Counted from the stretch's first letter, positions 6,751 through 25,677 are shown. The stretch: 64,000 bases of DNA from an uncultured delta proteobacterium (GCA_963767925.1 CAVYGB010000008.1:2368001-2432000), one strand, 5' to 3'. Made by a program: numbers and translations. Notes: a model not told the origin generated them from the letters alone.

Positions 6751-7254
6751 TCACACCGGGGGCAGCAACTCGACCCGATCGCCGGGACGGATCGCGCCCG
6801 GGGTGAGCACCCGCGCGTAGGTCCGGCTGCAGCCCGGGTGGCGCTTCTGGTCGAGCGGGCTGAAGTCGCCGTCGCGGAAACAACCGCGGATGGTCTTGCA
6901 GGGCGCCGCGTAGCTGGTGATGGCGAGGACCACCTCGCCGCCGAGGCGCAGCCGCGCGCCGGGAACGACCCGCCCCCAGTCGAGGCCCCGGACCGTGACG
7001 TTCTCCCCCGCGGCGCCGGGGGCGATGGGGTGCCCCTGCGCTACGAGGGCCTCGACCTGCTCGACGGCAAACAGACAGACCGCCCGCTCGGGGCCGCCGT
7101 GAAACCGCGGGTGCCGCTGCCGATCTCCGTCGAGCCCCAGCGTCCCCACGGTGGCCACCGGCACCGGGAGCTTCGGCACCCCGCCCTGCGAGACGCTCAC
7201 CTGGACGATCGTCCCGACCCGCCCGTCCGGGCCCGGCGATGCCGGCCGGCTCAG
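6751..7254 (-). CDS. MOSC domain protein (start uncertain)
   Basis: VSVSQGGVPK, GLDGDRQ..FHGGPERAV, GENVTV, PCKTI, YARVLTPGAIRPGD. Confidence 0.85.
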   Translation of the reverse strand: MSRPASPGPDGRVGTIVQVSVSQGGVPKLPVPVATVGTLGLDGDRQRHPRFHGGPERAVCLFAVEQVEALVAQGHPIAPGAAGENVTVRGLDWGRVVPGARLRLGGEVVLAITSYAAPCKTIRGCFRDGDFSPLDQKRHPGCSRTYARVLTPGAIRPGDRVELLPPV

Positions 7255-7859
7255 CGCAGCCTCGCGCTCTCCGCAGCGAGCGCCGCCGGCCAGGCCGGCA
7301 AGGCTCGCGCCTCGGCGGTGGTCAGCGGCGCCGCCGGGGCAGACGGCCGGGACTGCAGCGTGAGCTGCCACCAGCCCACGTCGTGCCAGGCACCCAGCTT
7401 CCAGCCGACCGCCGGGTAGACGCCGATCGAACGGAAGCCCAGCGCCTCGTGCAGGCCGACGCTGCCCGGGTTCGGCAAGGTGATCCCGGCGTGGGCCGCG
7501 AAGAAACCTTGCAGGCGCAGCAGGGAGAACAGCGCCTGGTAAAGAGCGCGCCCCAGGCCGCGGCGCTGGTGCCCGGCTCCGACGTAGACCGCGACGTCCA
7601 CCGACCACTGGTAGGCGGCACGATCCCGGTGCCGGGAGGCGTAGGCATACCCCAGCACGGGGCCGCCGCTTGCGCTGTCCCCTTCGACCGCGACGAGCCA
7701 CGGCGCAAATCCGATCAGCGCTCCGATCCGCCGCGCCATCTCGCCCGCGTCCGGCGCCTCGAGCTCGAAGGACGTGGCCGCGTCGCGCACGTGGGGCCGG
7801 TAGACGGCGGCCACCTGCGCGCCGTCGGCCGGGTCCGCCATGCGGAGGGTGATCGCCAT
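7251..7859 (-). CDS. GNAT N-acetyltransferase, phosphinothricin/arsinothricin acetyltransferase-like
   Basis: TSFELEAPD, GYAYASRHRDRAAYQWS, HQRRGLGRALY, PNPGSVGLHEALGF, GWKLGAWHDVGWWQ. Confidence 0.9.
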   Translation of the reverse strand: MAITLRMADPADGAQVAAVYRPHVRDAATSFELEAPDAGEMARRIGALIGFAPWLVAVEGDSASGGPVLGYAYASRHRDRAAYQWSVDVAVYVGAGHQRRGLGRALYQALFSLLRLQGFFAAHAGITLPNPGSVGLHEALGFRSIGVYPAVGWKLGAWHDVGWWQLTLQSRPSAPAAPLTTAEARALPAWPAALAAESARLR

Positions 7860-8012
7860 GGACCTTCCTGGCCCGAGGCTATCGCCGGCGGACCCGGGAT
7901 TCAACCGCGGGCGATGGTCGAGGCCCGATGGGGCCCGCCGGGTGGCTGGGCCGGGGTGATCCTGCGCACCGCCGGTGCGCCCGGCGGGTCGGCGCTGGTC
8001 ACCGCATGCCGA

Positions 8013-8285
8013 TCACTTCTTCTTGGCCGACCCGTTTCCGCCGTCTTCCGGCTTGTGCTGGAGACAGGGAGAACAGTTCACCTCGGTCCAGTTCATGGAG
8101 CGCTTCTCCTGCCACTGCTGCTCCCGCTTCTTGTGGGCTCGCCTCCAGGGAACGAAGAACGAATGGATGATCTTGGGGTCGATCGACTTCGCGCTTTTGT
8201 CCGACGGCTGCATGCCCTCAACATCGGCGGCTATCGATTCCTCCTCGACGACGTACCCCGGCGCCTGCGCTGCGGTTTGCGGCAA
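8013..8285 (-). CDS. Small hypothetical protein (may start at internal Met, MQPSDK)
   Basis: Lys/Glu/Trp-rich ORF unlike shadow ORFs; contains CSPC. Confidence 0.5.
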   Translation of the reverse strand: MPQTAAQAPGYVVEEESIAADVEGMQPSDKSAKSIDPKIIHSFFVPWRRAHKKREQQWQEKRSMNWTEVNCSPCLQHKPEDGGNGSAKKK

Positions 8286-8515
8286 CCCGAGGTTCCCCGA
8301 CGTCTTTCGGAGGTGGCCAGCGCGTTAGCCGCAGCGGTTCGTTCGGCGCTCGTCAGGCGAATCGCGGAGGGAACTTCTGATCGGCGGGACCGGCCGGCGC
8401 GAGGCCGTCGCTGGCCGCGGGGGCGAGCAACTTGGCGGGCCCGGCCATCGTCCACCGGACGCCGAAAGAACAGAGTGGGGACGTCGAAACCAGCCGCTAG
8501 CCAGACCGTCAACCC

Positions 8516-8838
8516 GCCCTGGCCGCCCTCTTCGACGCCACCAACCTGTTCCTCGGCACCCCGATCGGCGAATTCGTCGGGGAGATCGCCACCGCCACCT
8601 GGTTCTTCGCCGTCGCCATCGCCTGGCGCCGGGCCGGCCGCCGCGTCCTGGGCACCGCCGGCCACGCCGCCGCCACCATCGTCGCCATCGCCGCCCTCCG
8701 CAACATCACCCCCGCCGTCAGCCCCATCTCCGAATGAACAACCTCACCCTCCCCCTCTGGATGATCACCATGGGCATCGCCTTCGTGCGGGACCGGCAGC
8801 CAGGGCGCTGGACCGGAAGTCCGGGCAAGTCCCCCTGA
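8516..8838 (+). pseudogene. 5'-truncated membrane protein fragment, DUF4386-like
   Basis: No start codon; reads ALAALFDATNLFLGTPIGEFVGEIATATWFFAVAIAW...ALRNIT, frameshift, then NNLTLPLWMITMGIAFVR. Confidence 0.5.
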
Positions 8839-8871
8839 CAATGGGGTTCCGGGGCGCTATTACGAACGCCC

Positions 8872-9060
8872 ATGAACCCGAAAGAACGCCAGAGCCTGTT
8901 GACCCTGCTCGCGACCCACCTCCGCACCACCGACAACCCCGACGACACGGAGCTCGCCGACCGGATCGGAAAGAACGCCCTGACGGAAGAGGACTACGAA
9001 ACCCTCCAGGGCGTCTGCGAGATGGCCCTCGAGGACCACAAGCTCGCCAACGAAGCCTGA
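8872..9060 (+). CDS. Small acidic hypothetical protein
   Basis: 62-aa ORF with strong GC3 codon bias. Confidence 0.65.
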   Translation: MNPKERQSLLTLLATHLRTTDNPDDTELADRIGKNALTEEDYETLQGVCEMALEDHKLANEA

Positions 9061-9333
9061 TCCCAGGCGCCCCCCCCACCAGGGCCGGTCACCGATCGGC
9101 CCTTTTCGTTTCACACGCCTCTCGGTCGACGCGTAGGGAAGCGTCCTGCGTCAAGCCCGGCGGTCGGGAGCTCTTCCCCGGCCGGAGCTGGTGCCCGTAC
9201 GCCCCTCGCCCGTCGTGAGGTCGACGACCGACAACCGTCCAGGACGTCAGCCCCGAGCGCGCCGGTGGCCGCCCCGAGCCGCGAGCCCCGGCGGCCTGGA
9301 AAAGCTCGGGGAGGCGTGGTTGACTGGGCCACC

Positions 9334-10272
9334 GTGAAGCGTCGCCAGTTCCTTCGAAACACCGGTATCGCCGCCGCCTGCGCGGTGCTCGATGGGCCCG
9401 CCTTCGCCGCTGCCGGCCTGCGCGCGCGGCTTGGCGTCACCAGCGACGAGATCTCCAACGACCTCGAGGTGGCGTTGCGCCTCTTGCAGTCGTTCGGGCT
9501 CGGCTGGGTCGAGCTGCGGAAGGTTTGGGGGCAAAACGTCACCGAGCTCTCGCTCGAAGACTGCAAGCGCGCCCGCGCCCTGATGGACCGCTACAAGGTG
9601 CGCCTGTCCGTCCTCGACACGGCCATGTACAAGTGCGACCTGCCCGGCCTGCCGAGCGGCCGCAAGGAAGACTACCCCTTCGACGGTCAGGACGCCGTTC
9701 TGGCCCGGGCCCTCGAGCGCGCCCCCATCCTCGGCACCCGCTTCATCCGGATCTTCAGCTTCTGGCGCCCCAGCGCGGCCGCGCTCGACGAGCCCGGCTT
9801 CAAGCGCGTCGTCGAGCACCTGAGCAAGGCCAGCGACAAGGCGCGCGCCGCCAAGGCGACCCTGCTGCTGGAGAACGTCAACGGCGCCAACGTCGAGACC
9901 AGCGTCGAGGCGGCCCGCCTGCTGGCCGCCATCCCCTCGCCGGCGTTCGGCCTGGCCTGGGATCCCAACAACGCCTACTGCGGCAAGGAGACCCCCTTCC
10001 CCGACGGCTACCGCGCCCTCGACCGCAAACGGATCCACCACATCCACCTGCGCGACGCCGGCTGGGACCCCGAGACAAAGAAGTGCAAGTGGCTGCCCGT
10101 CGGCAAGGGCCAGGTCGACAACCTCGGGCTGCTGCGCGCCCTCGCCAAGGACCGGTTCCCCGGCACCCTCACCCTCGAAACCCACTACGCCCGCCCCGAC
10201 GGCAACAAGGAGCTCGCCACCCGCGAGTCCCTGCAGGGCCTGCTCCCCCTCTTCGACCGCGCGACAACCTGA
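9334..10272 (+). CDS. Tat-exported sugar-phosphate isomerase/epimerase (xylose isomerase-like TIM barrel)
   Basis: KRRQFL Tat motif; LLLEN, WDPNN, HIHLRD, LTLETH metal ligands. Confidence 0.9.
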   Translation: MKRRQFLRNTGIAAACAVLDGPAFAAAGLRARLGVTSDEISNDLEVALRLLQSFGLGWVELRKVWGQNVTELSLEDCKRARALMDRYKVRLSVLDTAMYKCDLPGLPSGRKEDYPFDGQDAVLARALERAPILGTRFIRIFSFWRPSAAALDEPGFKRVVEHLSKASDKARAAKATLLLENVNGANVETSVEAARLLAAIPSPAFGLAWDPNNAYCGKETPFPDGYRALDRKRIHHIHLRDAGWDPETKKCKWLPVGKGQVDNLGLLRALAKDRFPGTLTLETHYARPDGNKELATRESLQGLLPLFDRATT

Positions 10273-10474
10273 GCCGCCGTCGACCTGTGCTCGCGAACCA
10301 CGGTCGGGGTTCTGCGCCAGCACAGCCGCCACCTGCCCTCCCATCCGCGTCGGGAACCTGGCCATAGATCGCGAGGCACACGCCAGCCGTCTTGCCCGCC
10401 GCCTCCGAACAGAATCCAAAGCAGCGCGCGGCCCGCTCACAGGCCCGCTCCGAGGACAAGGGCTCCGGGCGCTC

Positions 10475-10873
10475 GTGGTGGGCGACGAGAACATCCACGT
10501 CGACGGGCGCAGGATCGCCGAGCTGGAGGCGCACCCGACCAATCACCTCTTCGTCCTCGAAGCGGAGGGCGCCGTGCAGGGAACCGCCTTCCTCACCATC
10601 TGCCTCGACCCGATGTACGGCTTCAGCCCCTACGGCGTGGTCGAGAACGTCTTCGTGCAGCCGGCGCTGCGCGGAACCAGCGCCGGTCGCGCCCTCATGA
10701 GCGCCGTCGAGCAGGAAGCGCGGGCCGCCCACAGCACCAAGCTGATGCTCCTGAGCTCGCTCTCCCGCAGCGACGCCCACCGCTTCTTCCTCCGCCTCGG
10801 CTTCGAGGGCGACAAGAAGCGCGGCTTCGTGAAATACCTCAACCGCACCCCGCCCCTCCCCCCCTCGCCCTGA
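10475..10873 (+). CDS. GNAT N-acetyltransferase (N-terminus possibly frameshifted)
   Basis: GVVENVFVQPALRGTSAGRALM, KLMLLS, AHRFFLRLGF. Confidence 0.8.
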   Translation: MVGDENIHVDGRRIAELEAHPTNHLFVLEAEGAVQGTAFLTICLDPMYGFSPYGVVENVFVQPALRGTSAGRALMSAVEQEARAAHSTKLMLLSSLSRSDAHRFFLRLGFEGDKKRGFVKYLNRTPPLPPSP

Positions 10874-11059
10874 CGATCGCCTTTCCCCCTCCTGCCCAGC
10901 GCCCGAACTGTGGCCAGGCACAGGAGGCCCCACCGCTCACACCAGGGATCCGGCATTCTCGAGGCGGGACGGCAATCGCCAGCGCACCACCCACAGCCGC
11001 TGCCGACGGAGGCGCACGCAGCATGCCAGCCTGTAACGGCTTCAGATCCGAGTAGGTTT

Positions 11060-11091
11060 GTAGCGGGGGCCCGCTACTTCCGTTTTCAAAT
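11060..11091. repeat. Distal att junction of the island
   Basis: GTAGCGGG-GG-CCCGCTAC perfect 8-bp inverted repeat, followed by T-N6-TTCAAAT. Confidence 0.75.
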
Positions 11092-11273
11092 ACCTACCGG
11101 CTGGCGCTGGCACCAGGGTTCGGGCTGGGGCTGGATGAGGGTTGTGGACCCGTCGCGGGGTAGAATCGAGTGCGGTCGGGTTCAGACCACCCTCGTCGTG
11201 TCGATGGGTTTGCGTTCCTGCCCCCGCCAATCTCGCAAGCCAACCAAGCTGGCTAATGACCGAGAGGTGTTAA

Positions 11274-11370
11274 AAGGCACTCCAGCGGTTCGTCTCGACG
11301 ACAAACGCCATCGAGAACCTGATGGGCGTCGTGCGGACGGTCACCCGCATCGAGAAGCGCCTCTATTCGT
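11274..11370 (+). pseudogene. IS256 (Mutator) family transposase fragment
   Basis: KALQRFVSTTNAIENLMGVVRTVTRIEKR resembles the IS256 TTN-x-IE catalytic-Glu helix; preceded by an in-frame stop. Confidence 0.6.
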
Positions 11371-11699
11371 GCTATCTTTTGCGACGCCGGGCAATCCCAG
11401 GGGCCGCTCGAAGCGCTGGATCTATCGCCCTGATGCGCGCAGTTGCGGGTATCCTCAGCTCCGGGCACACCCTCGCGGCTGGCCAGCCAAGCTTCCGCCG
11501 CAATGAAGCCTGCGCCGGGAAGCGGACCCTCGTCAGCCTTGCCCTGCTCAACCAGGCGCCGCGTGCCCACACGCTTCAGCGTGGAGGCCACTCGTGATCT
11601 CAGCAGCCGCAGCGTTCGGCGGACTGACGCGCGCGCGGGCACGGCCTGCCCCGAATCGACCGCATCTTTGAAGATCTGGCAGAGCCGCAACTGCAGGCT

Positions 11700-11945
11700 C
11701 CCCCCGCTGCTGCCGATGACCAGCTGCCGACCGGCACTTCGGAATCCTCGCACGTTGCCGGGACGTTCGCCCACGAGCGGGAGCCACGAAAGGCCTGTCA
11801 GCCCGCCTGCTGGTCGCGACCAGGGCTCGCGCCACCATCTCCTTTCCAGTGCCGGTCTCGCCACGGATGAGCACGGGAACGTCGGACCCCGCCACGCCGC
11901 GCGCGAGCTGGCGGACCTGCGCGACGACGGGCTCCTCTTCCGATC
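11700..11945 (-). pseudogene. Degenerate sigma-54 activator (AAA+) remnant
   Basis: VAGSDVPVLIRGETGTGKEMVARAL..SRRADRPFV followed almost directly, in another frame, by PGNVR; GAFTGA and Walker B are missing. Confidence 0.7.
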
Positions 11946-11965
11946 CGGAACGCAAGAACCGCGGT

Positions 11966-12427
11966 TCAGGGCGAGGAGACCAACTCCCAGGAAGCTCCCG
12001 CGAGGCGGTAGACGCTGCCTTCGGCGGGAACCCGTCGTTCGATCGAGCCGTCGGGCTTGATGGTCCAGGACTCGTCCCAGCGCTCGTCACGATCGAGGTC
12101 GACCTTGAGGCGATTCCAGCGCCGGCCGTCGTCGCTATAAACGTTGATCTTGTAAGGCCTGCCGCGCGTTCCGTCCTTGATCTTGGGCTCGACAGGGCGC
12201 TCGAGCAGCGCCAGCGCGGCGCGGTCGATCTCGCGCATGCCCGGCCCAGGTTGAAGCGGCGCAGACGGGGCTCCGGTCGCCGGTGGGCGTGCCGGGGAGG
12301 CCCTCGGCGCGGCGACGGGAGGCGGCGATAGGGTGCCGGCGCATTTGATGGCGCCGAACATGCCGAGGAGGCCACCGCAGCTGAAAACAACGACCAGGAC
12401 GATGTTGCGAAAGGTGCGGTACTTCAT
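11966..12427 (-). CDS. Membrane-anchored hypothetical protein, 153 aa
   Basis: ATG overlaps the upstream stop (ATGA); N-terminal TM helix, Pro-rich linker, KVDLDRDERWDESW motif. Confidence 0.8.
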   Translation of the reverse strand: MKYRTFRNIVLVVVFSCGGLLGMFGAIKCAGTLSPPPVAAPRASPARPPATGAPSAPLQPGPGMREIDRAALALLERPVEPKIKDGTRGRPYKINVYSDDGRRWNRLKVDLDRDERWDESWTIKPDGSIERRVPAEGSVYRLAGASWELVSSP

Positions 12428-13320
12428 GAGGTGGCCTTTGGTCGCTCCCGAGGCATCATGCCCCGCTCGATGGGGACGGTGCAGTTGCAGTATTGGTAGC
12501 GACACGGCGTGGGCTCGTCGCGAAGGGAAAAAGTCCCCTCGAGCAGGTTCCCGAGAGACTCCCGGCGGTACCGGCGCGCGGGGTAGCACCGGAAGGCGTT
12601 GCCGAGGTCGTCGAGGATGAAATAACGAGCGCCCGCCCAGCAGGGCCGACCGGAGAAGTCGGGGGCGATCTCGCCGGTCGAGTTGTGCCCACCCAGGGCG
12701 AGGATCTGCGCGCGCTCGCCGGGGGTGTAGGCGATGACCTCTCGATCCTGCTTCTCCGGTTGGATCTTGAAGCGAATGCCCGCCGACGCAAAGCGGTCCC
12801 GGAGATCCCCGAGGCGCGGGAGGTTGGCACGGGTCGCCACGCAGGTCACACAGAGCGACGCCGGCGGTCGGGCGCGCTTGGTGATGGTGCGGCAGCGTTC
12901 GATGAAGTCCTCGAGCGTGTCGGGTTTGCCGCCGACGCCGGTGGCGTCCACGTATTCGAGGTGTAGTGAACAGCTCATCACGCCGAGGTGGTCTCCGGCG
13001 GCGTCGAGGAACGCGAGCAGCTTTTTCCGCGAAGCCGACAAGTTCGTCACCATGGATATCAGGAAACCCAGGCCACGCAGGCCCCGCACCAGCTCCAGCA
13101 GTTGGGGGTGCAGGAAGGGTTCTCCCCCGGAGAGCTTCACCTCCCACGCCCCGGGTAGGGCGGCGAAAGCACGCAGGAACCGGGGGACGTCGCGCGCCCA
13201 GCGCCCGCGGTCGTCGACGAAACGTTGGGTGCAGTAGCTGCAGCGGTAGTTGCAGGTGGTGTTCATGTTCCAGCTGATGACCCCGCGCGGGGGGGCGGGG
13301 GTGGGAAGGAAGGGGCTCAT
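12424..13320 (-). CDS. Radical SAM protein with C-terminal Cys-rich auxiliary domain, 298 aa
   Basis: CNYRCSYC, SGGEPF, CWAGARYFILDDLGNAFRC, CRYQYCNC. Confidence 0.92.
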   Translation of the reverse strand: MSPFLPTPAPPRGVISWNMNTTCNYRCSYCTQRFVDDRGRWARDVPRFLRAFAALPGAWEVKLSGGEPFLHPQLLELVRGLRGLGFLISMVTNLSASRKKLLAFLDAAGDHLGVMSCSLHLEYVDATGVGGKPDTLEDFIERCRTITKRARPPASLCVTCVATRANLPRLGDLRDRFASAGIRFKIQPEKQDREVIAYTPGERAQILALGGHNSTGEIAPDFSGRPCWAGARYFILDDLGNAFRCYPARRYRRESLGNLLEGTFSLRDEPTPCRYQYCNCTVPIERGMMPRERPKATS

Positions 13321-14267
13321 TGGCTCGGCCCTGCCTCGGCCGCCCGGGCCGGCACACCCTCGATCATCCCGCGGTTGGCCGGCACACTGCAGGGGCAGAT
13401 GGTGTAGGGGCACCGCACCGGACCCGGGCGCAGAACCACGCTGCCTTGGTGGACGTTGCCGAGGTAACCTTCGTCTTCGCGTTTGGCCGATCGGCACGAC
13501 CAAGCGTCGCCGTTTTGCATGAGGACGAAGTAACGGGCGCCGGTCCAGCAGCGCCGGCCGGTGTAGGCGGGTGCGAGATTGGCGCTGCGCGACTCCTCGG
13601 CGAGCGCAAGCCCGCCGACGATTTCCTCGATGAGCGCCAGCTGCGCCAGGTTGTAGGCGACGACGCCGTGTTTGACCTTCATGAGCTGGGGAAAAAAGCG
13701 GAAGCCCGCGGCCTCGACCGCGCGCTTCGCGGCTCGGGCCTCCGCAAGGCGACTGGGCACCAGCACGCTGTTGACCACGAAGCGGGCGGTGGCATCGGAG
13801 GCCTGCCGCAGGGCCGACAGCCGCTGCAGGAAATCCGCCACCGCGGTGAACTCGAGGTGCAGGCTCGCCGAAACGATGCCGAGCCGGCCCAGGGTAAGAG
13901 CACCGAAACGTCGCAACACCGAGACCGGCGGCGACAGATTGGTCAGCAGCGAGATCCGATGCGGCAGCGCCAGCAGCCCTGGAACGATCCGGCGCAGGAA
14001 GAGCGGCGAGGCGAAGGGCTCGCCGCCGGTCATCTTGATCTCCCAGCTCCCCGGTAGGGCGCCGAGGAAGGCGATCATGCGATCGATCTGCTCGGCCGAT
14101 GGGAAGCCGACACGACGGTCGCGCGCCTGGATGCAATAGCTGCAATCGTAGTTGCAAACCCCGCACACCTGCCACTCGACGGTCGGCTGGTGCGGCCAGG
14201 GAGGTTCGGCCGGTCCCGGTTCCGCGGAGCTCGTGCCCAACCTTCCAACGATGGGTAAGTGTCTCAA
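13317..14267 (-). CDS. Radical SAM protein, paralog of the downstream gene, 316 aa
   Basis: CNYDCSYC, TGGEPF, CWTGARYFVLMQNGDAWSC, CPYTICPC. Confidence 0.92.
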   Translation of the reverse strand: MRHLPIVGRLGTSSAEPGPAEPPWPHQPTVEWQVCGVCNYDCSYCIQARDRRVGFPSAEQIDRMIAFLGALPGSWEIKMTGGEPFASPLFLRRIVPGLLALPHRISLLTNLSPPVSVLRRFGALTLGRLGIVSASLHLEFTAVADFLQRLSALRQASDATARFVVNSVLVPSRLAEARAAKRAVEAAGFRFFPQLMKVKHGVVAYNLAQLALIEEIVGGLALAEESRSANLAPAYTGRRCWTGARYFVLMQNGDAWSCRSAKREDEGYLGNVHQGSVVLRPGPVRCPYTICPCSVPANRGMIEGVPARAAEAGPSQ

Positions 14268-15394
14268 CCGAGCACCCTCAACCGTTTAGGGATAGCCGCC
14301 ACCTCCCCCGGACGCACCGGGCGGGGCGCCTCGCCGAACGCCGCGCGGAAGGCAGCGCCCAGCTTGACGTTCTCGTTCAGCTTTCCGCACTGCCAGCAAC
14401 CCGGGAAGAAGCCACCGGCGGCAAGCCGCGACCGCAAGCTCTCCCAGGCCTCACCTCGCCAGAGGGCGGAGAAACCAGCGGGCCGCTCGAGTCTTCCCAC
14501 CACCACCTCGGTGTTGCAGCAGAACAGGACGGTACCGTCGACGGTGATGCGGCTATATTCGTACCCCAGAAAACATCCGACGTCTTCGATGGGCGCGGTG
14601 GTCTCGCCGCCCGCCTCCACCTGCGCGCGGAAGACGTCCAGGTTGTGTTTCACCCCCAGGGCAAGGGCCTTAACGCGGGCCGCTTCGATCCCCTCGCCCA
14701 GCAACCAATGCCGCTGTGGCTCGCTGATGCGGGCAGCCTCGGTGCCGGCGCGCAAGGAAGCGAGCTTGAAGTTTACCTGGAGGGCCCGATAGCGAGCGGC
14801 CAGCGCGATCATGTCGGGCAGCTGACCGGCATTACAGGCGGCGATGACCTGGACCTGTTTGTAGCGGCGTCCGGCGTCTCGCAGCTGGCCCAGCATCCGG
14901 TGCAGCTTGTCCCAGTGGGCCGGGCCGAACGACGGGTGGAAGGCCAGGTAGGCTTCCGCGCTGGCACCGTGAACGCCAATGAGAAGTTGATCCACGCGCA
15001 GGGCCAGGAGCCGCTCGAGATCCGCGGCGACGAGGTTGGTGATGATCGTGAGATGCAGGCCGCGACCTTTGACGTCGGCGATCAGCTCATAGACGTGAGG
15101 ATGGGTGAACGGCTCGCCCATGCCCGACAGGATCACCGCCTCGAGGCCGCCCAACCCCTGGATGTCGTCGAGCAGCGCGTGCACGAACGCGGTGTCTACC
15201 CGCTGCCGTTTCCACGCCGCTGGTCTCGCCGCGGCCAGCAGGGGACTGTGGTCCCAGCAGGTGATGCAGTCGGTGTTGCAACTGTTCGTGATGTCGATGT
15301 GCACCGTGCGAGGTCCCAGGCGGACGATCCCGTCCCGGAGGCTCTCCAGGCGTTGCCGCGACGGCGAGGGAACAGCGCCGGTGCGCCGGTTCAC
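14264..15394 (-). CDS. Radical SAM protein with SPASM/twitch-like domain, 376 aa
   Basis: CNTDCITC, SGMGEPF, CFLGYEYSRITVDGTVLFCC...CWQC; GTGA overlap with upstream gene. Confidence 0.92.
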   Translation of the reverse strand: MNRRTGAVPSPSRQRLESLRDGIVRLGPRTVHIDITNSCNTDCITCWDHSPLLAAARPAAWKRQRVDTAFVHALLDDIQGLGGLEAVILSGMGEPFTHPHVYELIADVKGRGLHLTIITNLVAADLERLLALRVDQLLIGVHGASAEAYLAFHPSFGPAHWDKLHRMLGQLRDAGRRYKQVQVIAACNAGQLPDMIALAARYRALQVNFKLASLRAGTEAARISEPQRHWLLGEGIEAARVKALALGVKHNLDVFRAQVEAGGETTAPIEDVGCFLGYEYSRITVDGTVLFCCNTEVVVGRLERPAGFSALWRGEAWESLRSRLAAGGFFPGCWQCGKLNENVKLGAAFRAAFGEAPRPVRPGEVAAIPKRLRVLG

Positions 15395-17061
15395 GATGGC
15401 CCCCCCACACTCTGCAGCCGCACCCGCGCGCGTTCGAGGAGCAGCCGGTTTGGTTGCTCCCCGTCGGGCTCGGCCTGAAGGCGGGTCACCTCCTGGACGA
15501 CCCGGAACAGATCGAGCCCCACCGCGGCGCTGACATCCATGACCGTGACGATCTGCTCTGCGGCGCGCGCCGGGGCGACCTCCCGCTCGGTGCGGAGGCG
15601 CTCGACCAGCGAGACCAGGGCGCTCCACTGCCCGTGCGCCGCCGGGTGCGCCAGCAGCGCGGCAGCGGCCTCGCCGATCTCGTCCGGCCCCACCTGAGGC
15701 GCGCAGAGCTTGCGGCCGAGCAGCGTCGCGAGCCGCACGGCCAGTTTCTGAGGCATACCCACCTCCCGGGCCGCCCGCAAGAGGGTGCGGGCAGGCTGGA
15801 GGTCGAGCGCGGCCCGGTCCACCGTCCGCGGATTTCCCAGCAGGCCCACCGCCGCATCTACCAGATGGCCCAGCTCAACGCCCAGCGCCTGCGCCTCCGC
15901 GAGCAACTGGTCGTCGACGATGGCCGCTGCCTGACGCACCACACTGGTGGGTAGCACCAGCTCCAGCAGCTCGGCCGCTGCGTCGCGAGCATGGTTGCGT
16001 GGCACCCTCCGTAGGCCGGCCTCCCGCAAGCCCGCCGCCGTGCTCGGATCGCGGAGAGCGGCCACCGTCGCGGCCAGCGTCGATGGCTCGACGGCGCGCA
16101 GATCCAGCGCCGCCCCCGCGCCCACCATGGCCGCCACCCGGCCGTACTGGTCGTCGGCGATCTTGGTCTGGGCGAAAAATGCGGTGGGAACGCCGAAGTG
16201 CAGGAGCTCGTGGGTGGCGTTGAAACCGGCCGCGGAGATCGCACCGTCCACGCCGGGGAGCACCTCTGCCAGGCGCGTCTCCGTCCAGAATGTGATGCGC
16301 GGACCTCGGCGGGGCTCACCGCGATAGAGCGGCCCGGCCGCGAGCAGCAGATGGATGGTGGGATCGTGGGCCACGGCGGCCACCACGGCGTCGAGGAGGG
16401 CGGCGACCGTCTGGTCGCCGCCGCCGCCCCCGGAGACCAGCAGGCAAAAGGCGTCCTCCGGAACACCGATGCGGGCCCGCGCGGCCCCGCGGGACAGGGC
16501 CTCGAAGCGCTCGGTGAGCATGACCGGACCGACCGCGCGAATCTGATCGCGCCGCACCTCGGCAGGCGGCTCGGCGGGATCGCCATCCGCACCGGGAACG
16601 ATCACCCGATCGTAAAGCGTCACCAGGGCGCGGTAGGCCGGCCGATCCGCGAGCTCCTGGCGAACCCTGCGCGCGACCAGCGCCTTGTGCCGGCAGAGGT
16701 CCAGCACCCCCAGCAGCTCGTCGAACGACCCGTTGGGGAATGTGTCCACCACGAGCAGATCGGGGCGGAGCAGCGCCACCGCGCTCCAGACCCACTGCTT
16801 GGCCAGGGCCAGGTAAGAGGCCTTGGGGATGCCGGCCTCTTCGACGATGGACTTGCTCGGCAGCTTGAAGGAGGCGAAACCCTCGTGGAAAAGCAGCGTG
16901 TCCGCCTCGGAGGTGGTGAGGAACCAGTGCTGGGTGGTGACCCCGGCAAAGGTGGCATAACGCCTCAACCAGCGGTTGATGGCCGCCAGCCGGCAGACGT
17001 GCCCGAGCCCACGGCCGTTCACCGCGTAGTTGACCAGGACGAGCGAGCGCGGCAGTTCCAT
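15391..17061 (-). CDS. GT-B glycosyltransferase (MurG/GT28-C-like) with helical C-terminal extension
   Basis: NGRGLGHVCR, PDLLVVD, VSGGGGG, ISAAGFNATHELL, DDQYGR. Confidence 0.88.
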   Translation of the reverse strand: MELPRSLVLVNYAVNGRGLGHVCRLAAINRWLRRYATFAGVTTQHWFLTTSEADTLLFHEGFASFKLPSKSIVEEAGIPKASYLALAKQWVWSAVALLRPDLLVVDTFPNGSFDELLGVLDLCRHKALVARRVRQELADRPAYRALVTLYDRVIVPGADGDPAEPPAEVRRDQIRAVGPVMLTERFEALSRGAARARIGVPEDAFCLLVSGGGGGDQTVAALLDAVVAAVAHDPTIHLLLAAGPLYRGEPRRGPRITFWTETRLAEVLPGVDGAISAAGFNATHELLHFGVPTAFFAQTKIADDQYGRVAAMVGAGAALDLRAVEPSTLAATVAALRDPSTAAGLREAGLRRVPRNHARDAAAELLELVLPTSVVRQAAAIVDDQLLAEAQALGVELGHLVDAAVGLLGNPRTVDRAALDLQPARTLLRAAREVGMPQKLAVRLATLLGRKLCAPQVGPDEIGEAAAALLAHPAAHGQWSALVSLVERLRTEREVAPARAAEQIVTVMDVSAAVGLDLFRVVQEVTRLQAEPDGEQPNRLLLERARVRLQSVGGPS

Positions 17062-17063
17062 GG

Positions 17064-18344
17064 TCAGCTCGCGTCCATGCTGGAAAAATCGTCCCGGCTC
17101 CCCTGGGCGGTGGCTATCGCGCCGGCAGCTACTTCTCGGTCACGTATCGCATGAGCCGTGCGGTGTTCTGCCACCTCGGGGATGAAGTTTCCTTTAACGC
17201 GCCCGCCGGTCATGAGATCCCACCAGAGATAGTCTCGCGACGGTTCACACACTTGATACGCGTCGAACCCCACCACCGACTGGCAGGCCTGCTGGTAACG
17301 GGCGCGGCGGTCGTCCCAGCGCACGAGCGGCAGAGAGTACTTTGCCCTCACCTCTCGCTCGTCGTACGAGGCGTTGCACTTCCTGGCACTGGCGGTCAGC
17401 TTCTCCTCGGTGCGCGCCAGCTTCTCGAGCATACGTGTGACTTCGGCGCGTGGGCGGCGGATCCATTCTTCCCCAATGGCTGCGAGGTAGCGGGTCTTGG
17501 CCTGCACACCCGCCACCCGCTTGGCCGCCAGCGACAGGGCCGGGTCGTCGCTGAAAACCCCTAGAAAGTCCTGTTCCGGAAGGGCGTCGAGATGATCGCG
17601 CGCTCGACCGCGGGCGGTGGCGAGCGACCAGGGCTCGGTGCTGGCAAGCGCGGTTCCGGCCTCCTCGTACCGGCGGGCGAGCGCTTCGATCTGTCCGGCC
17701 TGATTGATCAGGTCGCCACGCTCGGTATTCAAGGCCTCGAGGGCCTCGCCCTCTCGCAGGTAACCCGCGCGAATCTGCCCGAAGTCCATCGCCCGCAGGC
17801 GCGGACCGTGTCGCTCCAGAATGAGGTCGCCGTGTTTCCAGTGGCGATAATACGAGGACTCCCACCACATTCGGGTGTACCCCTCGACCCCGTATTTCTC
17901 CGCGATCAGCTCGGCGAAGAACGGCTCGCCTTCCAGCAGCGAGCGGCTGGTCGCCAGGGCCGTGATATGCTCCGCTAGATCGTGGGCGCGGATGGAGATG
18001 CGGTTGAGCGCCGCGGCGCGGGTCACGAACCGCTGGTCGACTTCGATGGACGCCCGGGTGATCTCCAGCTGCGCCTTACGTTCTCCGGCACGCTTCGCCA
18101 CCTCGCCCGGAGCCAGGGTCGGGAGGGACAGCCGGGAGGCGGCCGCGCTCAGGGCCGCGGGGTCGAGGTTCGGCAAGAGCAGTCCGAGGAGGTGTTGCCA
18201 GGCACCGTCGAGCGCGGCTCGCACCTCCTGCTCGGTACGCTCGTGCTCCACGCGCGTGGCATCGAGACGGTGAAGCTCCGCTTCGGCCACGGCACGTTGT
18301 CTCCGGGCGAGCTCGCGCAGCTCCTGGCCGGAAAGGCTGCTCAC
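17064..18344 (-). CDS. Hypothetical coiled-coil-rich protein, 426 aa
   Basis: GTG overlaps the upstream TGA; long heptad-like helices with aromatic islands WWESSYYRHWKHGD and YLWWDLMTGG. Confidence 0.8.
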   Translation of the reverse strand: MSSLSGQELRELARRQRAVAEAELHRLDATRVEHERTEQEVRAALDGAWQHLLGLLLPNLDPAALSAAASRLSLPTLAPGEVAKRAGERKAQLEITRASIEVDQRFVTRAAALNRISIRAHDLAEHITALATSRSLLEGEPFFAELIAEKYGVEGYTRMWWESSYYRHWKHGDLILERHGPRLRAMDFGQIRAGYLREGEALEALNTERGDLINQAGQIEALARRYEEAGTALASTEPWSLATARGRARDHLDALPEQDFLGVFSDDPALSLAAKRVAGVQAKTRYLAAIGEEWIRRPRAEVTRMLEKLARTEEKLTASARKCNASYDEREVRAKYSLPLVRWDDRRARYQQACQSVVGFDAYQVCEPSRDYLWWDLMTGGRVKGNFIPEVAEHRTAHAIRDREVAAGAIATAQGSRDDFSSMDAS

Positions 18345-18700
18345 GGCCCGCCGCCTCCCGGGCGGGCGCCCGAACACCTGCGGGCGACCTCGTCGAGGAA
18401 GGCCTCCGCCGCGGCCGCCAGATCCTCGGCGGAGGTCGCGGCGGTTTCATCCACCACGAAGATGTACAGGTCGCCCGCGGCGATGCGCCGGCCAAGCTCT
18501 GCTCGCGCTATCGCAGTGAGCTCGGCGTGATCACCGGCAAGGTGGGTGAGGTATTCGTATCCCACCCGCGCGACGGGGTCCCATCCGTCCGCCGTGAAGT
18601 CGAGCCTGCCCTCCCGGAAGGGGACGTTTTCCTGGATCGAATAGCCACGCCCGGCGAAAGCCCGTTTCAGGACGGCGCATCCTTCCGCTTCGCTCAGCAT
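18341..18700 (-). CDS. Small hypothetical protein, possible restriction-endonuclease-like fold
   Basis: 119 aa; ENVPF..LDFTADGWDPVARVGYEY pattern. Confidence 0.7.
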   Translation of the reverse strand: MLSEAEGCAVLKRAFAGRGYSIQENVPFREGRLDFTADGWDPVARVGYEYLTHLAGDHAELTAIARAELGRRIAAGDLYIFVVDETAATSAEDLAAAAEAFLDEVARRCSGARPGGGGP

Positions 18701-19107
18701 GATGGGCCCGATAGGCTGCCCCGGACTTCGTCCTTAAACCCATTTCTGACGAACGCCCGATCGAGGTGACCGAGCACCGCCAGGGCGGCTGGCCCGGACA
18801 GAGGTGCCGACCACTCCGATCGGTAGACGATGAGGCGGCTCATGTCTATCGTGGAGACCATGATCGAACCGCCTTGACCGCCGGCCCCCACTTCCACGTC
18901 GGCGAGACAGGCGTGGGCGCGGGCCACGTCGTCGTCGCGAGCAGAGCGTTTCAACCAGGTCCGGCACACCTCGCGGGCCTGGTCGAATCGACGTAGCTGA
19001 ACCAGCTGGGAGGAAAGCCGCGAAAGCTCCGCCGGCCCCGTTGGGGCGGCAGGCGCTTCAGCCTGCGAGAGCAGCGATCCCAACAGGATGGAGGGCAGCA
19101 AGATCAT
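18694..19107 (-). CDS. Secreted TPR-like protein, probably truncated
   Basis: Signal-like MILLPSILLGSLLSQA, TPR-like helices (RRFDQAREVC, AHACLADV). Confidence 0.45.
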   Translation of the reverse strand: MILLPSILLGSLLSQAEAPAAPTGPAELSRLSSQLVQLRRFDQAREVCRTWLKRSARDDDVARAHACLADVEVGAGGQGGSIMVSTIDMSRLIVYRSEWSAPLSGPAALAVLGHLDRAFVRNGFKDEVRGSLSGPSC

Positions 19108-19179
19108 GGATGATCTGCCCTTTCGGCAGTTCACTCGGGGATCTGAACGGGCTGCAGCCGCCCTCCACCGATGGTCGGA

Positions 19180-19771
19180 TCAGAGCTTGAGGAGGGCTTC
19201 CCGGGCCACCGCTCCGATGGTCGATTTCTTCGATTTGGGTAGATCGGAGTCGTACAGCATGCAGGGGGTCTCGTCGGAGGTGAACCGGGCGATCTGCTCG
19301 CGCTGCTCGACCACCCTCATGCGCCCGAGCGCCCTCCTCAACTTCAGTCGCCACAGCCGAACCGGAACAAGGTCAAGTACTCCGCACCTGGCGGCTACCG
19401 CCGCCGGCGTTCCGGTGGCCAGCGCAGGCGACCCCACGAAGGCACCACCATCTCCACCTCCGGGGCGTTGTAGGTTCGCTCCACCATCTGGCCATCGTCG
19501 TCGAGGTGCGGACCGTCCTTTGGCCGCCCGCAACCGGTACGCTGAGGCACAGCAACGGCACGGGCTCGCGGCGTTCACGACGATGAGACGTCTCGTAGCG
19601 GACGGGCATCCAGGTGCCGTCCTTCATGGCGAGATCGAGCCCGGTCCCGCAGCGCACGGGCCGGCCGTCGAGGTGGTGGCGATACCCGCCCGTGCTGCAG
19701 TTGTGCCAGAACTCCAGATTCCCCGAGCGGTTAAGGAACTAACCGCATTCGTCGGCGTAGTCGTCGATCAT
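19180..19771 (-). pseudogene. Disrupted gene with DUF5348-like N-terminal domain
   Basis: MIDDYADECG*FLNRSGNLEFWHNCSTGGYRHHLDGRPVRCGTGLDLAMKDGTWMPVRYE: in-frame TAG and later frameshifts. Confidence 0.45.
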
Positions 19772-19887
19772 CGGTGAATTCCGCCACTTCTCTGGGCGCG
19801 ATGAGCATGACGCGATGGCTTTAGCGACTGCGCCTCCCTTCACGCCTGATGGCGGCAATGGGGTCGTGCGGGCCCTATAAAGGTCTG

Positions 19888-20136
19888 ATGGCAAATGCCG
19901 ACGTGGACGAGCTGCTCGCGGCGATTCGCCGTCTCCCGCTTGACGAGCGCCTGCGACTCTTGGACCGCGCCAGTCGCGAAGCCGCTCGCGATGCGCCGAG
20001 ACCGGTGTCGGTCCGTACCAACCTAGCGTCTGCTCTTCTCGGGTTGCTGGCAGACGAACCCGAGCTAGTCGATCAGATGTGCCTCCTGGCCTATCGGTCG
20101 CGCGACGGAGTGCGGATGCGGTCGGTTGATGAGTAG
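19888..20136 (+). CDS. Putative antitoxin (VapB-like)
   Basis: 82 aa, DELLAAIRRLPLDERLRLL; overlaps the PIN gene start. Confidence 0.7.
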   Translation: MANADVDELLAAIRRLPLDERLRLLDRASREAARDAPRPVSVRTNLASALLGLLADEPELVDQMCLLAYRSRDGVRMRSVDE

Positions 20137-20552
20137 GCGGTTGTTGGATACGGACATCCTCTCCGAAATCCTCAAGGGAAGGAACGTCTCGGTTTACGGC
20201 ACGAGCAACGGCGTATCTGGCGGAGCATGGCAGGTTCACCACGTCGGCGGTGACGGTCGCGGAGGTCGTCTACGGATTCCGTCGGGTGGGTCGGGAGGAC
20301 CGTGTGACCCAGTTCGAAACGTCTGCGGACGCATCCGAGGTACTCCCCTTCGATGACCAGGCTGCCCGGCTCGCCGGGCGAATCAATGCCGATCTGGAAC
20401 GCCTCGGCCGCGTCATCGGAATGCCTGACGTCATGGTTGCCGCGATCGCCCTGCGAAACGGTCTCCCGATCGTCACCGGAAACGTCGTGCACTTCGAATA
20501 CGTCATGGCCGCGGGGTACCCGCTGGCTATCGAGAACTGGAAAAATACCTGA
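20129..20552 (+). CDS. vapC: PIN-domain VapC toxin (frameshift near 20190)
   Basis: LLDTDILSE, TVAEVVYG, VLPFDD, DVMVAAIAL, IVTGNVVHF. Confidence 0.85.
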
Positions 20553-21017
20553 CCCTCGGTCCGGGCGTCCCTCGAGGGGAGGACAATCCCCGCAGCAGTG
20601 GCTCCCTCGGGCTGAGCGCGCCCAGTCTGCCGCACTCGCTCACGCCCGCGGCTTCTGTCGCCGGTCCTCGTCGGCGGATCAACCGGCGCACCCGACGTTC
20701 GGAGCCGCGGCATCAGCGACCTGGCCCGGCGACGGTCGCCGGTGAGGTCGGGAGGCGAGATGGGCAAGACCGTGGTCAGGTGTCGAACAACCGGAAGCCG
20801 CAGCGGTGTTGTCCACGGACGACGGGGCAGCATCGGTGCAAGGGGTGCAGTCGTCACCGGGTCAGGTGGACCAGCGGGCCTGCCAGCCGGGGGCGAAAGC
20901 GTCCTCGCCGATCGACCGTTCCGCACGCGGGCGTCCCAGACTGACAGTAGCGGGGTCAGTCAAAGGCGCACGCGGGGTCGCCAACTTCTTGGCGTGACCC
21001 TGATTTGAACGGATGAG

Positions 21018-21091
<74 letters not shown>

Positions 21092-21173
21092 TCAAGGATT
21101 TCAGTCGACTAGGTTAGGCTCTCGCCGGCGGCCGGGATTTTTAGGGGCCCGGAAGTCTTCGAAAGGGACGGAG

Positions 21174-21202
21174 AAACTGCCCCATCGGATGTGCCACGTC
21201 AA
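21174..21202 (-). promoter_or_regulatory. Candidate sigma70 promoter for the tRNA
   Basis: TTGACG-17 bp-CAGTTT about 80 bp upstream of the tRNA. Confidence 0.5.
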
Positions 21203-24840: not shown

Positions 24841-25667
24841 CCTTCGAGAAGGAGCTTTTGGCGGCCCAGCGAATCGCCGAGGAGGCGGCCGCCCTGGTGC
24901 GCACCTTCCGGGTGGCGGGCATCGCGGTCGAGAAGAAGTCGGGCGACGAGCCGGTGACCGCCGCCGACCACGCCGCCAGCGAGCTGATCGTGCGCCGCCT
25001 GGGGGAGGCCTTCCCGGCGGACGCGGTGCTGTCCGAGGAGCTGCCCGACGACGGGGCCCGGCGGCACCAGAGCCGGGTCTGGATGGTCGACCCCATCGAC
25101 GGCACCCGGGACTTCATCGCCGGCGACGACGGCTACGCCGTCATGATCGGTCTCTGCGTCGACGGGCGACCGCAGGTGGGCGCCCTGGCCATGCCCGCCA
25201 CCGGCGTGGTCTACGCCGGGATCGCGGGCGGCTCCGGCTGGAAGCAGCTCGCCGACGGCACCCGCGCGCCCCTGAAGACCTCGACCATCAGCCAGCCCCC
25301 CGGGATCCGGCTCGTCGCCTCCAAGTCCCACCGGACCAAGAACATCGATGCCTTTCGCCAGGCCCTCGCCATCGAGGACGAGCTGAACGTGGGCAGCGTG
25401 GGGGTCAAGGTCGGGCTGGTGGCCGACGGCAGCCGCGACCTCTACGTCTACCCCGGCTCCCGCACCAAGCTGTGGGACGCCTGCGCGCCCGAGGCGATCC
25501 TGCTCGCGGCCGGCGGCCGCTTCACCGACGTGCGCGGCAACGCGCTGACCTACACGGACGCCGAGCTGTACAACCGCGGGGGTATCGTCGCCTCCAACGG
25601 CCCCCTGCACGACCGGGTGCTGCGCACCCTGGCCGACCTGATCTCCGCCCAGCCCCTGCCTGGCTGA
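24837..25667 (+). CDS. CysQ/inositol monophosphatase family nucleotidase
   Basis: [34 protein letters not shown]. Confidence 0.9.
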
Positions 25668-25677
25668 GCGGGGCCGC

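Follow-up and report, generated by a model that had tools for sequence, protein, structure and literature searches.

A recurring cassette that places radical SAM enzymes and a GT-B-type glycosyltransferase beside proteins with a conserved C-terminal serine

What do three radical S-adenosylmethionine (SAM) enzymes and a glycosyltransferase act upon when they are encoded side by side with three proteins that match no Pfam family? The question is raised by a block of seven genes at positions 11966-18700, minus strand, in a 64,000-nucleotide stretch of DNA from an uncultured delta proteobacterium (GCA_963767925.1, CAVYGB010000008.1:2368001-2432000), the whole of which was analysed and is called the window here. 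We tentatively favour the view, to which we give a little short of an even chance, that the block is a protein-maturation system whose glycosyltransferase and three SPASM/twitch-type radical SAM enzymes modify the C-terminal tail of P0002, the helical protein encoded immediately before the glycosyltransferase. An earlier reading made from the DNA alone (the sequence-only reading) had named modification of this co-encoded coiled-coil protein as one option among several, and it is the option favoured here because a tail ending in serine is common to two unrelated proteins that occupy the same slot in two forms of the cassette. The genes and the tail, with their coordinates in the window, are:

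18341-18700, minus strand: gene 1, encoding P0001, 119 amino acids (aa) (open-reading-frame translation)
17064-18344, minus strand: gene 2, encoding P0002, 426 aa (open-reading-frame translation)
17067-17144, minus strand: C-terminal tail of P0002, residues 401-426, ending Asp424-Ala425-Ser426
15391-17061, minus strand: gene 3, encoding P0003, 556 aa, GT-B-like (open-reading-frame translation, profile)
14264-15394, minus strand: gene 4, encoding P0004, 376 aa, radical SAM with a partial SPASM domain (Pfam)
13317-14267, minus strand: gene 5, encoding P0005, 316 aa, radical SAM with a twitch-like, Cys-rich C-terminal domain (Pfam, alignment)
12424-13320, minus strand: gene 6, encoding P0006, 298 aa, radical SAM (Pfam, alignment)
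11966-12427, minus strand: gene 7, encoding P0007, 153 aa, with one transmembrane helix (alignment, transmembrane prediction)

The seven genes had been described as intact and tightly spaced, and each was recovered in place without an internal stop, with five 4-bp overlaps (GTGA, GTGA, TTGA, ATGA, ATGA) and one 2-bp gap at the junctions. From gene 1 to gene 7 the start codons are ATG, GTG, ATG, GTG, TTG, ATG and ATG, all seven genes stop with TGA, and the GC content at third codon positions lies between 0.79 and 0.87. The source genome holds a single copy of the cassette.

The recurring cassette and its serine-ending tails

To follow the cassette into other genomes, P0006 was used to scan genomes, one for each species, which gave 407 loci, and the best 80 were studied; gene-presence counts are given as loci with the gene over full-type loci with room for it. 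Two arrangements were found, a full type at 69 of the 80 loci and a reduced type at the remaining 11. Wherever the 69 full-type loci have room for them, genes 2-7 almost always follow one another as in the window, and these loci belong to Myxococcota, Acidobacteriota, Planctomycetota, Cyanobacteriota and other phyla. P0004 (61/61), P0005 (65/65) and P0007 (67/67) were present throughout, the glycosyltransferase was found in 51/54 and P0002 in 46/49, plus two divergent copies recognised by eye (L041 and L045), while P0001 was present in 21/49, in its expected place in 20 of those 21. The neighbourhood check on whether the genes co-occur elsewhere thus came out in favour of the cassette as a unit, with an ordered block that recurs in dozens of genomes, far beyond chance. 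The surroundings are not conserved, the commonest non-cassette family being found near the cassette at only 9 of the 80 loci. The cassette itself tolerates interruption at the P0005/P0006 junction, since an insert of about 2-3 kb separates the P0005-type and P0006-type genes at L044, L052, L055 and L061. At L052, a Polyangiaceae contig, a 664-aa radical SAM protein (PF04055, E 3.8e-13) is also encoded on the minus strand at 10944-12935, about 1.7 kb downstream of the cassette.

P0002 was modelled with AlphaFold2 as an elongated all-helical bundle with a predicted local distance difference test (pLDDT) score of 95.3, and low confidence is confined to the last 25 or so residues, the tail scoring 76, 61 and 49 over its final blocks. 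The family comprises 269 representative clusters (E ≤ 0.001). Scanned singly, 80 P0002 relatives gave no Pfam family, and none was found for P0002 in NCBIfam or PADLOC; neither a transmembrane helix nor a signal peptide was predicted in it. A Foldseek search of the model against the PDB returned no match at E ≤ 0.001, and a wide VIA-align search gave fragments of coiled-coil, BAR and Smc proteins whose top Z, 9.4, fell below the noise expected for helical bundles.

The C-terminal region of the family is built from a conserved LWWDLMTDGRxDGxFIPEV motif followed by a variable acidic tail, with a median of 12 Asp plus Glu in the last 60 residues. At its very end, Ser is present in all 47 P0002 homologues from the loci (35 ending DxS, 9 YxS, 2 ExS and 1 GxS) and in 125 of 136 full-length representatives of the family, with Asp at position -3 in 117 of the 136. 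As a base rate, 45 of 9397 coding-like open reading frames of the source genome (about 0.5%) end in [DE]xS, and 778 have Ser as their last residue. No Ala-rich pre-terminal stretch was flagged in those 45, using a crude pattern that was unchecked on known tails and a filter that omitted P0002 itself. The tail gene is also a close neighbour of the glycosyltransferase gene: in 43 of 46 full-type loci the distance to the start of the latter is -13 to +146 bp, a range that includes the 2-bp gap of the window. A predicted complex of the glycosyltransferase with P0002 scored 0.00 in a calculation made without control runs, which is evidence neither way.

Some tails in the P0002 family are rich in His, with at least four His in the last 60 residues in 41 of 136 members and at least six in 18, and runs of the HHHH..HHHHHH type precede the terminal D-x-S in some of them (e.g., L006:4860-6212 and L035). 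Such tails hint at metal binding.

The reduced cassette consists of a glycosyltransferase without the C-terminal extension found in P0003, a SPASM radical SAM enzyme and a single further radical SAM enzyme, which is 37-44% identical to P0005 and 36-38% identical to P0006. Genes 2 and 7 are both missing from it, gene 7 in 10 of 10 reduced-type loci with room for it. The slot before the glycosyltransferase is occupied by a different protein, composed of a signal peptide, TPR repeats, a strong transmembrane helix, a helical region and a four-Cys motif (CFFCARPL..CPxCA). Homology of this TPR/membrane protein with the P0002 family was considered and rejected (hhalign probability 1.5%). Its C-terminus reads D-[HN]-S in 7/7 reduced-type loci, and D-x-S in 18/21 database homologues, the other three of which look truncated. 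Metagenomes yielded 22 loci, 17 of which were examined and five of which were too short, and the protein ends in D-x-S in 16 of the 17. At one reduced-type locus (L079:7188-8737), a BRO-N gene, of a phage-associated family, and a 235-aa open reading frame lie between the glycosyltransferase and the SPASM radical SAM genes.

Two unrelated proteins in the same slot thus carry one invariant terminus, and the simplest explanation is that the enzymes recognise or modify this very end; we therefore propose that a sugar is added to the terminal Ser or close to it. The glycosyltransferase core, the SPASM radical SAM enzyme and one twitch-type radical SAM enzyme would be the minimal machinery, because this set is common to both cassette types. 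P0006, the glycosyltransferase extension, P0002 and P0007 travel together and are confined to the full type. As a matter of speculation, P0002 and P0007 may jointly be equivalent to the reduced-type tail protein, since that protein itself has a periplasmic domain and a transmembrane helix.

The enzymes and their companions

That P0003 is a GT-B glycosyltransferase, as the sequence-only reading had it, was difficult to establish from the protein alone, for which the Pfam matches (EryCIII-like_C and Glyco_tran_28_C) were weak and below cut-off and a single-sequence search of the PDB found nothing at E ≤ 1. A profile of 52 homologues matched YjiC (E 5.1e-11), MurG (6.5e-8) and OleD (2.5e-6) in the PDB, with the matches covering the second Rossmann half at positions of about 214-367. 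Invariant in the family are the N15-G-x-G-x-G-H21 loop, R24, G279, N281, E285, D303 and Q305. The profile matches, together with the invariant Gly-rich loop and its His, place P0003 with the GT-B enzymes of the GT1/GT28-like type, and putative roles for the conserved residues follow from the GT1 literature. MurG itself was rejected as an assignment (TIGR01133, 18.9 bits vs a cut-off of 250.25). The protein is laid out as a glycosyltransferase core of about 370 aa followed by a helical C-terminal extension from about 370 to 556. A further glycosyltransferase homologue, at L189:5959-7107 on a very GC-rich metagenome contig, keeps the N-G-x-G-x-G-H loop and is 42% identical to the reduced-type enzyme, and was set aside since no radical SAM gene is visible downstream within the 7.9 kb covered. 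An open reading frame adjacent to it terminates in G-L-S, and the one that follows it (7082-7831) extends almost to the end of the stretch.

All three proposed radical SAM enzymes scored above the PF04055 cut-off of 29.5 bits (P0004, 43.3; P0005, 36.1; P0006, 52.6). The SPASM family PF13186 was detected in P0004 (26.9 bits vs a cut-off of 21.5), and Pfam gave no PF13186 match in P0005 or P0006. Alignment of homologues showed that each protein keeps the CxxxCxxC motif and five more Cys in its C-terminal part: C39/C43/C46 with C274, C292, C293, C333 and C336 in P0004 (32 homologues), C38/C42/C45 with C240, C258, C286, C291 and C293 in P0005 (32 homologues), and C23/C27/C30 with C227, C245, C273, C278 and C280 in P0006 (25 homologues). 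A SPASM/twitch hairpin is defined as Cx9-15Gx4C plus further C-terminal Cys, and the spacing read from the P0005 and P0006 sequences is C-x12-G-x4-C. An auxiliary-cluster domain of the SPASM/twitch class is thus indicated by PF13186 in P0004 and by the hairpin spacing and Cys residues in P0005 and P0006. Enzymes of this class act mostly on peptides, proteins or sugars. P0005 and P0006 are indeed a paralogous pair, as had been claimed, at 38% identity (E 2.1e-45), and P0006 is the best-conserved gene of the cassette, with 973 homologues, the best 120 of which are 60-81% identical and spread across Myxococcota, Acidobacteriota, Planctomycetota and other phyla.

Searches with sequences and profiles against the PDB gave as the best match for the radical SAM proteins an unnamed "Fe-S radical SAM" protein (E 9e-9), followed by PqqE and BlsE, so that judged from sequence they are without a close solved structure. 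All NCBIfam matches of the three were far below curated cut-offs. Among the candidates rejected, the prokaryotic viperin model (NF038283) scored 52.3, 26.0 and 21.1 bits vs 180 and matched the N-terminal half only; the PADLOC pVip model matched P0006 with 62.9 bits over only positions 1-150 of 257; and the STM4011 family (NF038073) scored 40.2 and 44.8 bits for P0005 and P0006 vs 200, or 39.6 and 35.2 bits when the genome was searched.

P0007 was claimed to be membrane-anchored, and one transmembrane helix is predicted in it (residues 9-27), preceded by a conserved N-terminal MK[FY]xTFR peptide and followed by a linker rich in Pro and Ala and then by a conserved beta-rich domain, about 90 aa long, that is predicted to be extracytoplasmic. 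The AlphaFold2 model of this domain is six-stranded, with pLDDT above 90 over residues 61-153, and displays a DLDRDxKWDE loop that we take to resemble the DxDxDG loops of calcium-binding proteins. In several loci (e.g., L006, L007, L009 and L013) the domain is doubled inside one open reading frame. No Pfam, NCBIfam or PADLOC family was found for P0007, and the same was true of 32 relatives scanned singly. Nor was a fold match found, the best results being E 0.26 with Foldseek and Z 6.7 with VIA-align, and a gene-7 profile gave only chance-level matches in the PDB. The beta-domains of TarM, GtfA and Gap123 matched at Z 5-6, which is below significance, and were not used.

P0001 had been called nuclease-like, a description that found no support in Pfam, NCBIfam or profile searches; PADLOC likewise contained no family for it, and a profile of 20 homologues matched no sequence in the PDB at E ≤ 10. 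Its aligned homologues conserve D38, E49, T52, G56-D57 and D84, and by its sequence it is classed here as a small cytoplasmic protein and an optional accessory of the cassette.

What the enzymes may act on

On the favoured reading, the block would be a self-contained, horizontally mobile protein-maturation cassette in which P0002 is a cytoplasmic helical substrate or scaffold. Its tail, made up of an Ala-rich stretch, a variable linker and the terminal Ser (usually D-x-S-COOH), would be the site of recognition and modification. The GT-B enzyme, with a catalytic site probably centred on His21 and a second Rossmann half that would bind the nucleotide-sugar, would glycosylate the terminal Ser or a site close by, after which the three radical SAM enzymes would tailor the attached sugar or residues of the tail; alternatively, they might tailor the sugar donor first. 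Gene 7 would supply a membrane-anchored partner with an outward-facing domain and gene 1 an optional accessory. Gene order, the catalytic Cys motifs, the tail and the adjacency of tail and glycosyltransferase genes are conserved, and from these we infer the tail as substrate, the order and chemistry of the reactions and the cellular role. In a more specific version that we consider rather unlikely, the terminal Ser would receive a sugar, and the three radical SAM enzymes would convert the adduct into a prosthetic group, a cofactor or a tether to the membrane or envelope, with D-x-S as a portable tag grafted onto different proteins, including the TPR membrane protein of the sister cassette.

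Several observations weigh against the tail as the target. Eleven of the 136 P0002-family representatives lack the terminal Ser, and Tyr replaces Asp at position -3 in 9 of 47 tails, Y-L-S variants among them. At L054:6933-11372, labelled Acidobacteria, three radical SAM genes and gene 7 occur without a glycosyltransferase or a tail protein. The best solved relatives of the glycosyltransferase profile are small-molecule GT1 enzymes and the lipid-II enzyme MurG, the N-terminal half of P0006 gives its top scores against models of viperin and MoaA, which act on nucleotides, and no PqqD/RRE-type peptide-recognition domain is detectable with Pfam in the three radical SAM proteins. In the second tail family, a borderline hydrophobic Ala/Gly-rich segment precedes the tail (Kyte-Doolittle 1.6-1.9, above threshold in 5/7), and if this segment spans the membrane, radical SAM enzymes in the cytoplasm could not get at the tail. 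The conservation of a C-terminus might just as well reflect docking, sorting or degradation, and the pairing of the enzymes with the tail is a prediction from sequence and gene context.

Part of this evidence would suit small-molecule or glycolipid biosynthesis, with the glycosyltransferase acting on a lipid or hydrophobic metabolite and the radical SAM enzymes tailoring the sugar or the aglycone, in which case P0002 and gene 7 would do no more than assemble the enzymes or anchor them at the membrane and the C-terminus would serve another purpose. The glycosyltransferase profile, with its YjiC/OleD-type GT1 and MurG matches, the lack of an RRE domain detectable with Pfam and the radical SAM genes without a tail protein at L054 all fit this view, as do the weak matches of P0004 and P0006 to BlsE, a sugar-nucleoside decarboxylase (7vob/7voc in the PDB, E about 2e-3), and the likeness of the P0002 model to a membrane-binding bundle of the BAR/ESCRT-III kind, at a non-significant Z of 7-9. 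We consider this explanation unlikely, however, since neither the cassette nor its surroundings have a conserved gene for a transporter or for sugar-nucleotide, lipid or acceptor synthesis, and since it leaves unexplained the D-x-S on two unrelated proteins encoded before the glycosyltransferase. The sequence-only reading had already reported the lack of precursor-peptide, nonribosomal peptide synthetase, polyketide synthase and sugar-nucleotide genes, and this stands for the cassette and for genes conserved beside it. Another candidate substrate is the exported protein of gene 7, which might be modified in the cytoplasm before insertion, in the manner of sulfatase maturation or of HxsA. Its presence in 67/67 full-type loci with room, the tandem copies of its domain within one open reading frame in several loci and the conserved MK[FY]xTFR peptide argue for it, but the protein is absent in all 10 reduced-type loci with room, where the glycosyltransferase and two radical SAM enzymes persist, and it lacks a conserved repeat of Cys, Tyr or Ser such as known radical SAM substrates typically have. 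This makes it, in our judgement, the least probable of the explanations weighed here.

A role in anti-phage defence, which the sequence-only reading had also raised, would involve either a modified nucleotide of the viperin kind or an effector matured as in the HXS system and acting at the envelope, the latter version overlapping with the favoured modification of the protein tail. The cassette is patchily distributed, a P0006 orthologue being present in 19 of 301 sampled genomes of the window's phylum, scattered over families, and phyla are mixed in a quick P0006 tree, with at least two forced changes for Acidobacteriota (submitters' labels are unreliable) and two cyanobacterial rows grouped with Acidobacteriota rows. 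The GC content of the cassette stretch is 0.66-0.71 vs 0.73-0.79 across the first 8 kb of the window, in a window where GC is uneven elsewhere and further stretches dip to 0.64-0.69, and a tRNA-Met gene lies nearby at 21017-21091. These features would fit defence, as would the weak pVip matches of P0006, which cover its N-terminal half only, and the precedent that proteins matured by radical SAM enzymes can defend against phage, as reported for HXS (PMC13128918). Yet PADLOC v2.0.0 identified no system, returning only generic pVip-type radical SAM matches and a GajA match at E 0.016, with none for P0002, P0003 or P0007, and the pVip/NF038283 scores were far below cut-off. The 101 flanking open reading frames scanned were mostly housekeeping or of unknown function, about 6 of them appearing defence- or mobile-like by our reading, and the best 80 matches on viral contigs were 22-38% identical radical SAM proteins, with no cassette or close relative among them. 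A defence role thus goes unsupported and is judged improbable. A modified-nucleotide product is possible, what points to it being generic radical SAM similarity to viperin and MoaA alone.

The locus had also been described as a tRNA island with decayed flanks. An island is plausible but its borders are not demonstrated, because neither an integrase (Pfam scan of the open reading frames around the cassette) nor an att-like repeat of the tRNA end (within 8000-21200) was found. Decay of the flanks could not be confirmed either: its basis is open reading frames without a family, those from the cassette to the tRNA gene and just downstream of gene 7 having no Pfam match, and a 52-aa fragment resembling the ATPase of sigma-54 activators. 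This fragment lies just downstream of gene 7 at about 11782-11937, minus strand, within an open reading frame at 11548-12390; it bears a GETGTGKE Walker A motif, is 40-56% identical to full-length activators over 45-52 aa and is probably a pseudogene remnant. On the other side of the cassette, a 146-aa open reading frame with a signal-peptide-like N-terminus (18694-19134, minus strand) ends 7 bp inside gene 1 and has no Pfam match; in the 80 related loci nothing corresponding to it precedes the cassette. Farther away, an 803-aa stop-to-stop frame (25553-27961, minus strand) contains PmbA/TldD domains 1-3 at residues 335-666; its first 330 or so residues are without a Pfam match and may precede the true start, no start codon having been chosen. 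Two long divergent open reading frames, on the minus strand and ending in membrane-like stretches, lie upstream of the cassette genes at L054. An Rfam scan found tRNA only and no riboswitch, and a consensus scan gave 0 promoter-like sites and 8 terminator-like sites vs 4.5±2.5 in shuffles. The sequencing-run search listed no RNA run and one soil-metagenome DNA run that matched 0.13 of words.

Significance and comparison with known systems

The cassette is a compact set of one GT-B enzyme and two or three SPASM/twitch radical SAM enzymes that is found in at least five phyla and tied to a testable terminal-Ser tag. If the tag is the target, this would be a new post-translational modification of proteins and a handle on two uncharacterised families outside Pfam, P0002 and P0007; if it is not, the block would still be an undescribed conserved pathway with three radical SAM enzymes. 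Cultured entry points are available in Enhygromyxa salina DSM 15201 for the full type (locus L007) and in Stigmatella erecta and S. hybrida for the reduced form (homologues P0285 and P0289). The earlier suggestion that the cluster corresponds to no known pathway held up, in that the system is covered by no model in Pfam, NCBIfam or PADLOC and no description of the cassette was found in the literature covered, which excludes most subscription journals.

Mycofactocin biosynthesis offers one likeness, a SPASM radical SAM enzyme (MftC) and a glycosyltransferase (MftF) beside a polypeptide (MftA) that is modified at its extreme C-terminus. The MftC model nevertheless scored only 32.9 bits with P0004 and 14.6 bits with P0005 vs a cut-off of 265, which places neither protein in that family. 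The mycofactocin substrate is a peptide of about 30 aa with a Val-Tyr terminus, whereas here it would be a folded 426-aa helical protein ending in Ser, and the present cassette has three radical SAM enzymes and a glycosyltransferase of the GT-B fold, with no MftB/RRE partner, peptidase or flavoenzyme and no conserved short open reading frame. In class IIb microcins such as MccE492, a C-terminal Ser bears a glycosylated moiety and a GT1-family enzyme is encoded in the cluster, with no radical SAM enzyme known to take part in maturation; the cassette differs from these in having no siderophore, MceIJ-type or export genes and a large cytoplasmic candidate substrate.

Sugar-tailoring radical SAM enzymes of the twitch/SPASM type, such as BtrN and BlsE, occur in antibiotic clusters with sugar-nucleotide and export genes. 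The enzymes described here resemble them in length (about 300-380 aa), in having one auxiliary-cluster domain and in having a glycosyltransferase as neighbour, but what is conserved here is a protein whose terminus is invariant, and not sugar-nucleotide or export genes. The Cys-rich C-terminal halves of P0005 and P0006 also align to positions 118-255 of the 278-position STM4011 model (NF038073); the literature on STM4011, judged by title and abstract, held nothing relevant, the term being found for a Salmonella regulator.

Maturation by radical SAM enzymes is well known for short peptides, including ribosomally synthesised and post-translationally modified peptides, pyrroloquinoline quinone (PQQ) and mycofactocin. 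The cassette falls outside the HXS family models, with scores of 12 bits vs 267.9 for TIGR03977 and of 27.7 and 15.5 bits vs 500 for NF038332; P0002 has none of the His-x-Ser repeats of HxsA, and the putative substrate P0002 lacks a signal peptide, unlike that of HXS. HXS, as reported, is also without a glycosyltransferase, of which this cassette has one (PMC13128918). As described there, two radical SAM enzymes of HXS (HxsA-D; Nat Commun 2026, PMC13128918) mature a co-encoded protein effector that acts against phage, so that maturation of a whole protein by such enzymes has only recently been shown. The two systems are alike in this respect, both having paired radical SAM enzymes whose substrate is, or in the present case would be, a protein rather than a short peptide, together with a small accessory and an envelope-facing component (PMC13128918).

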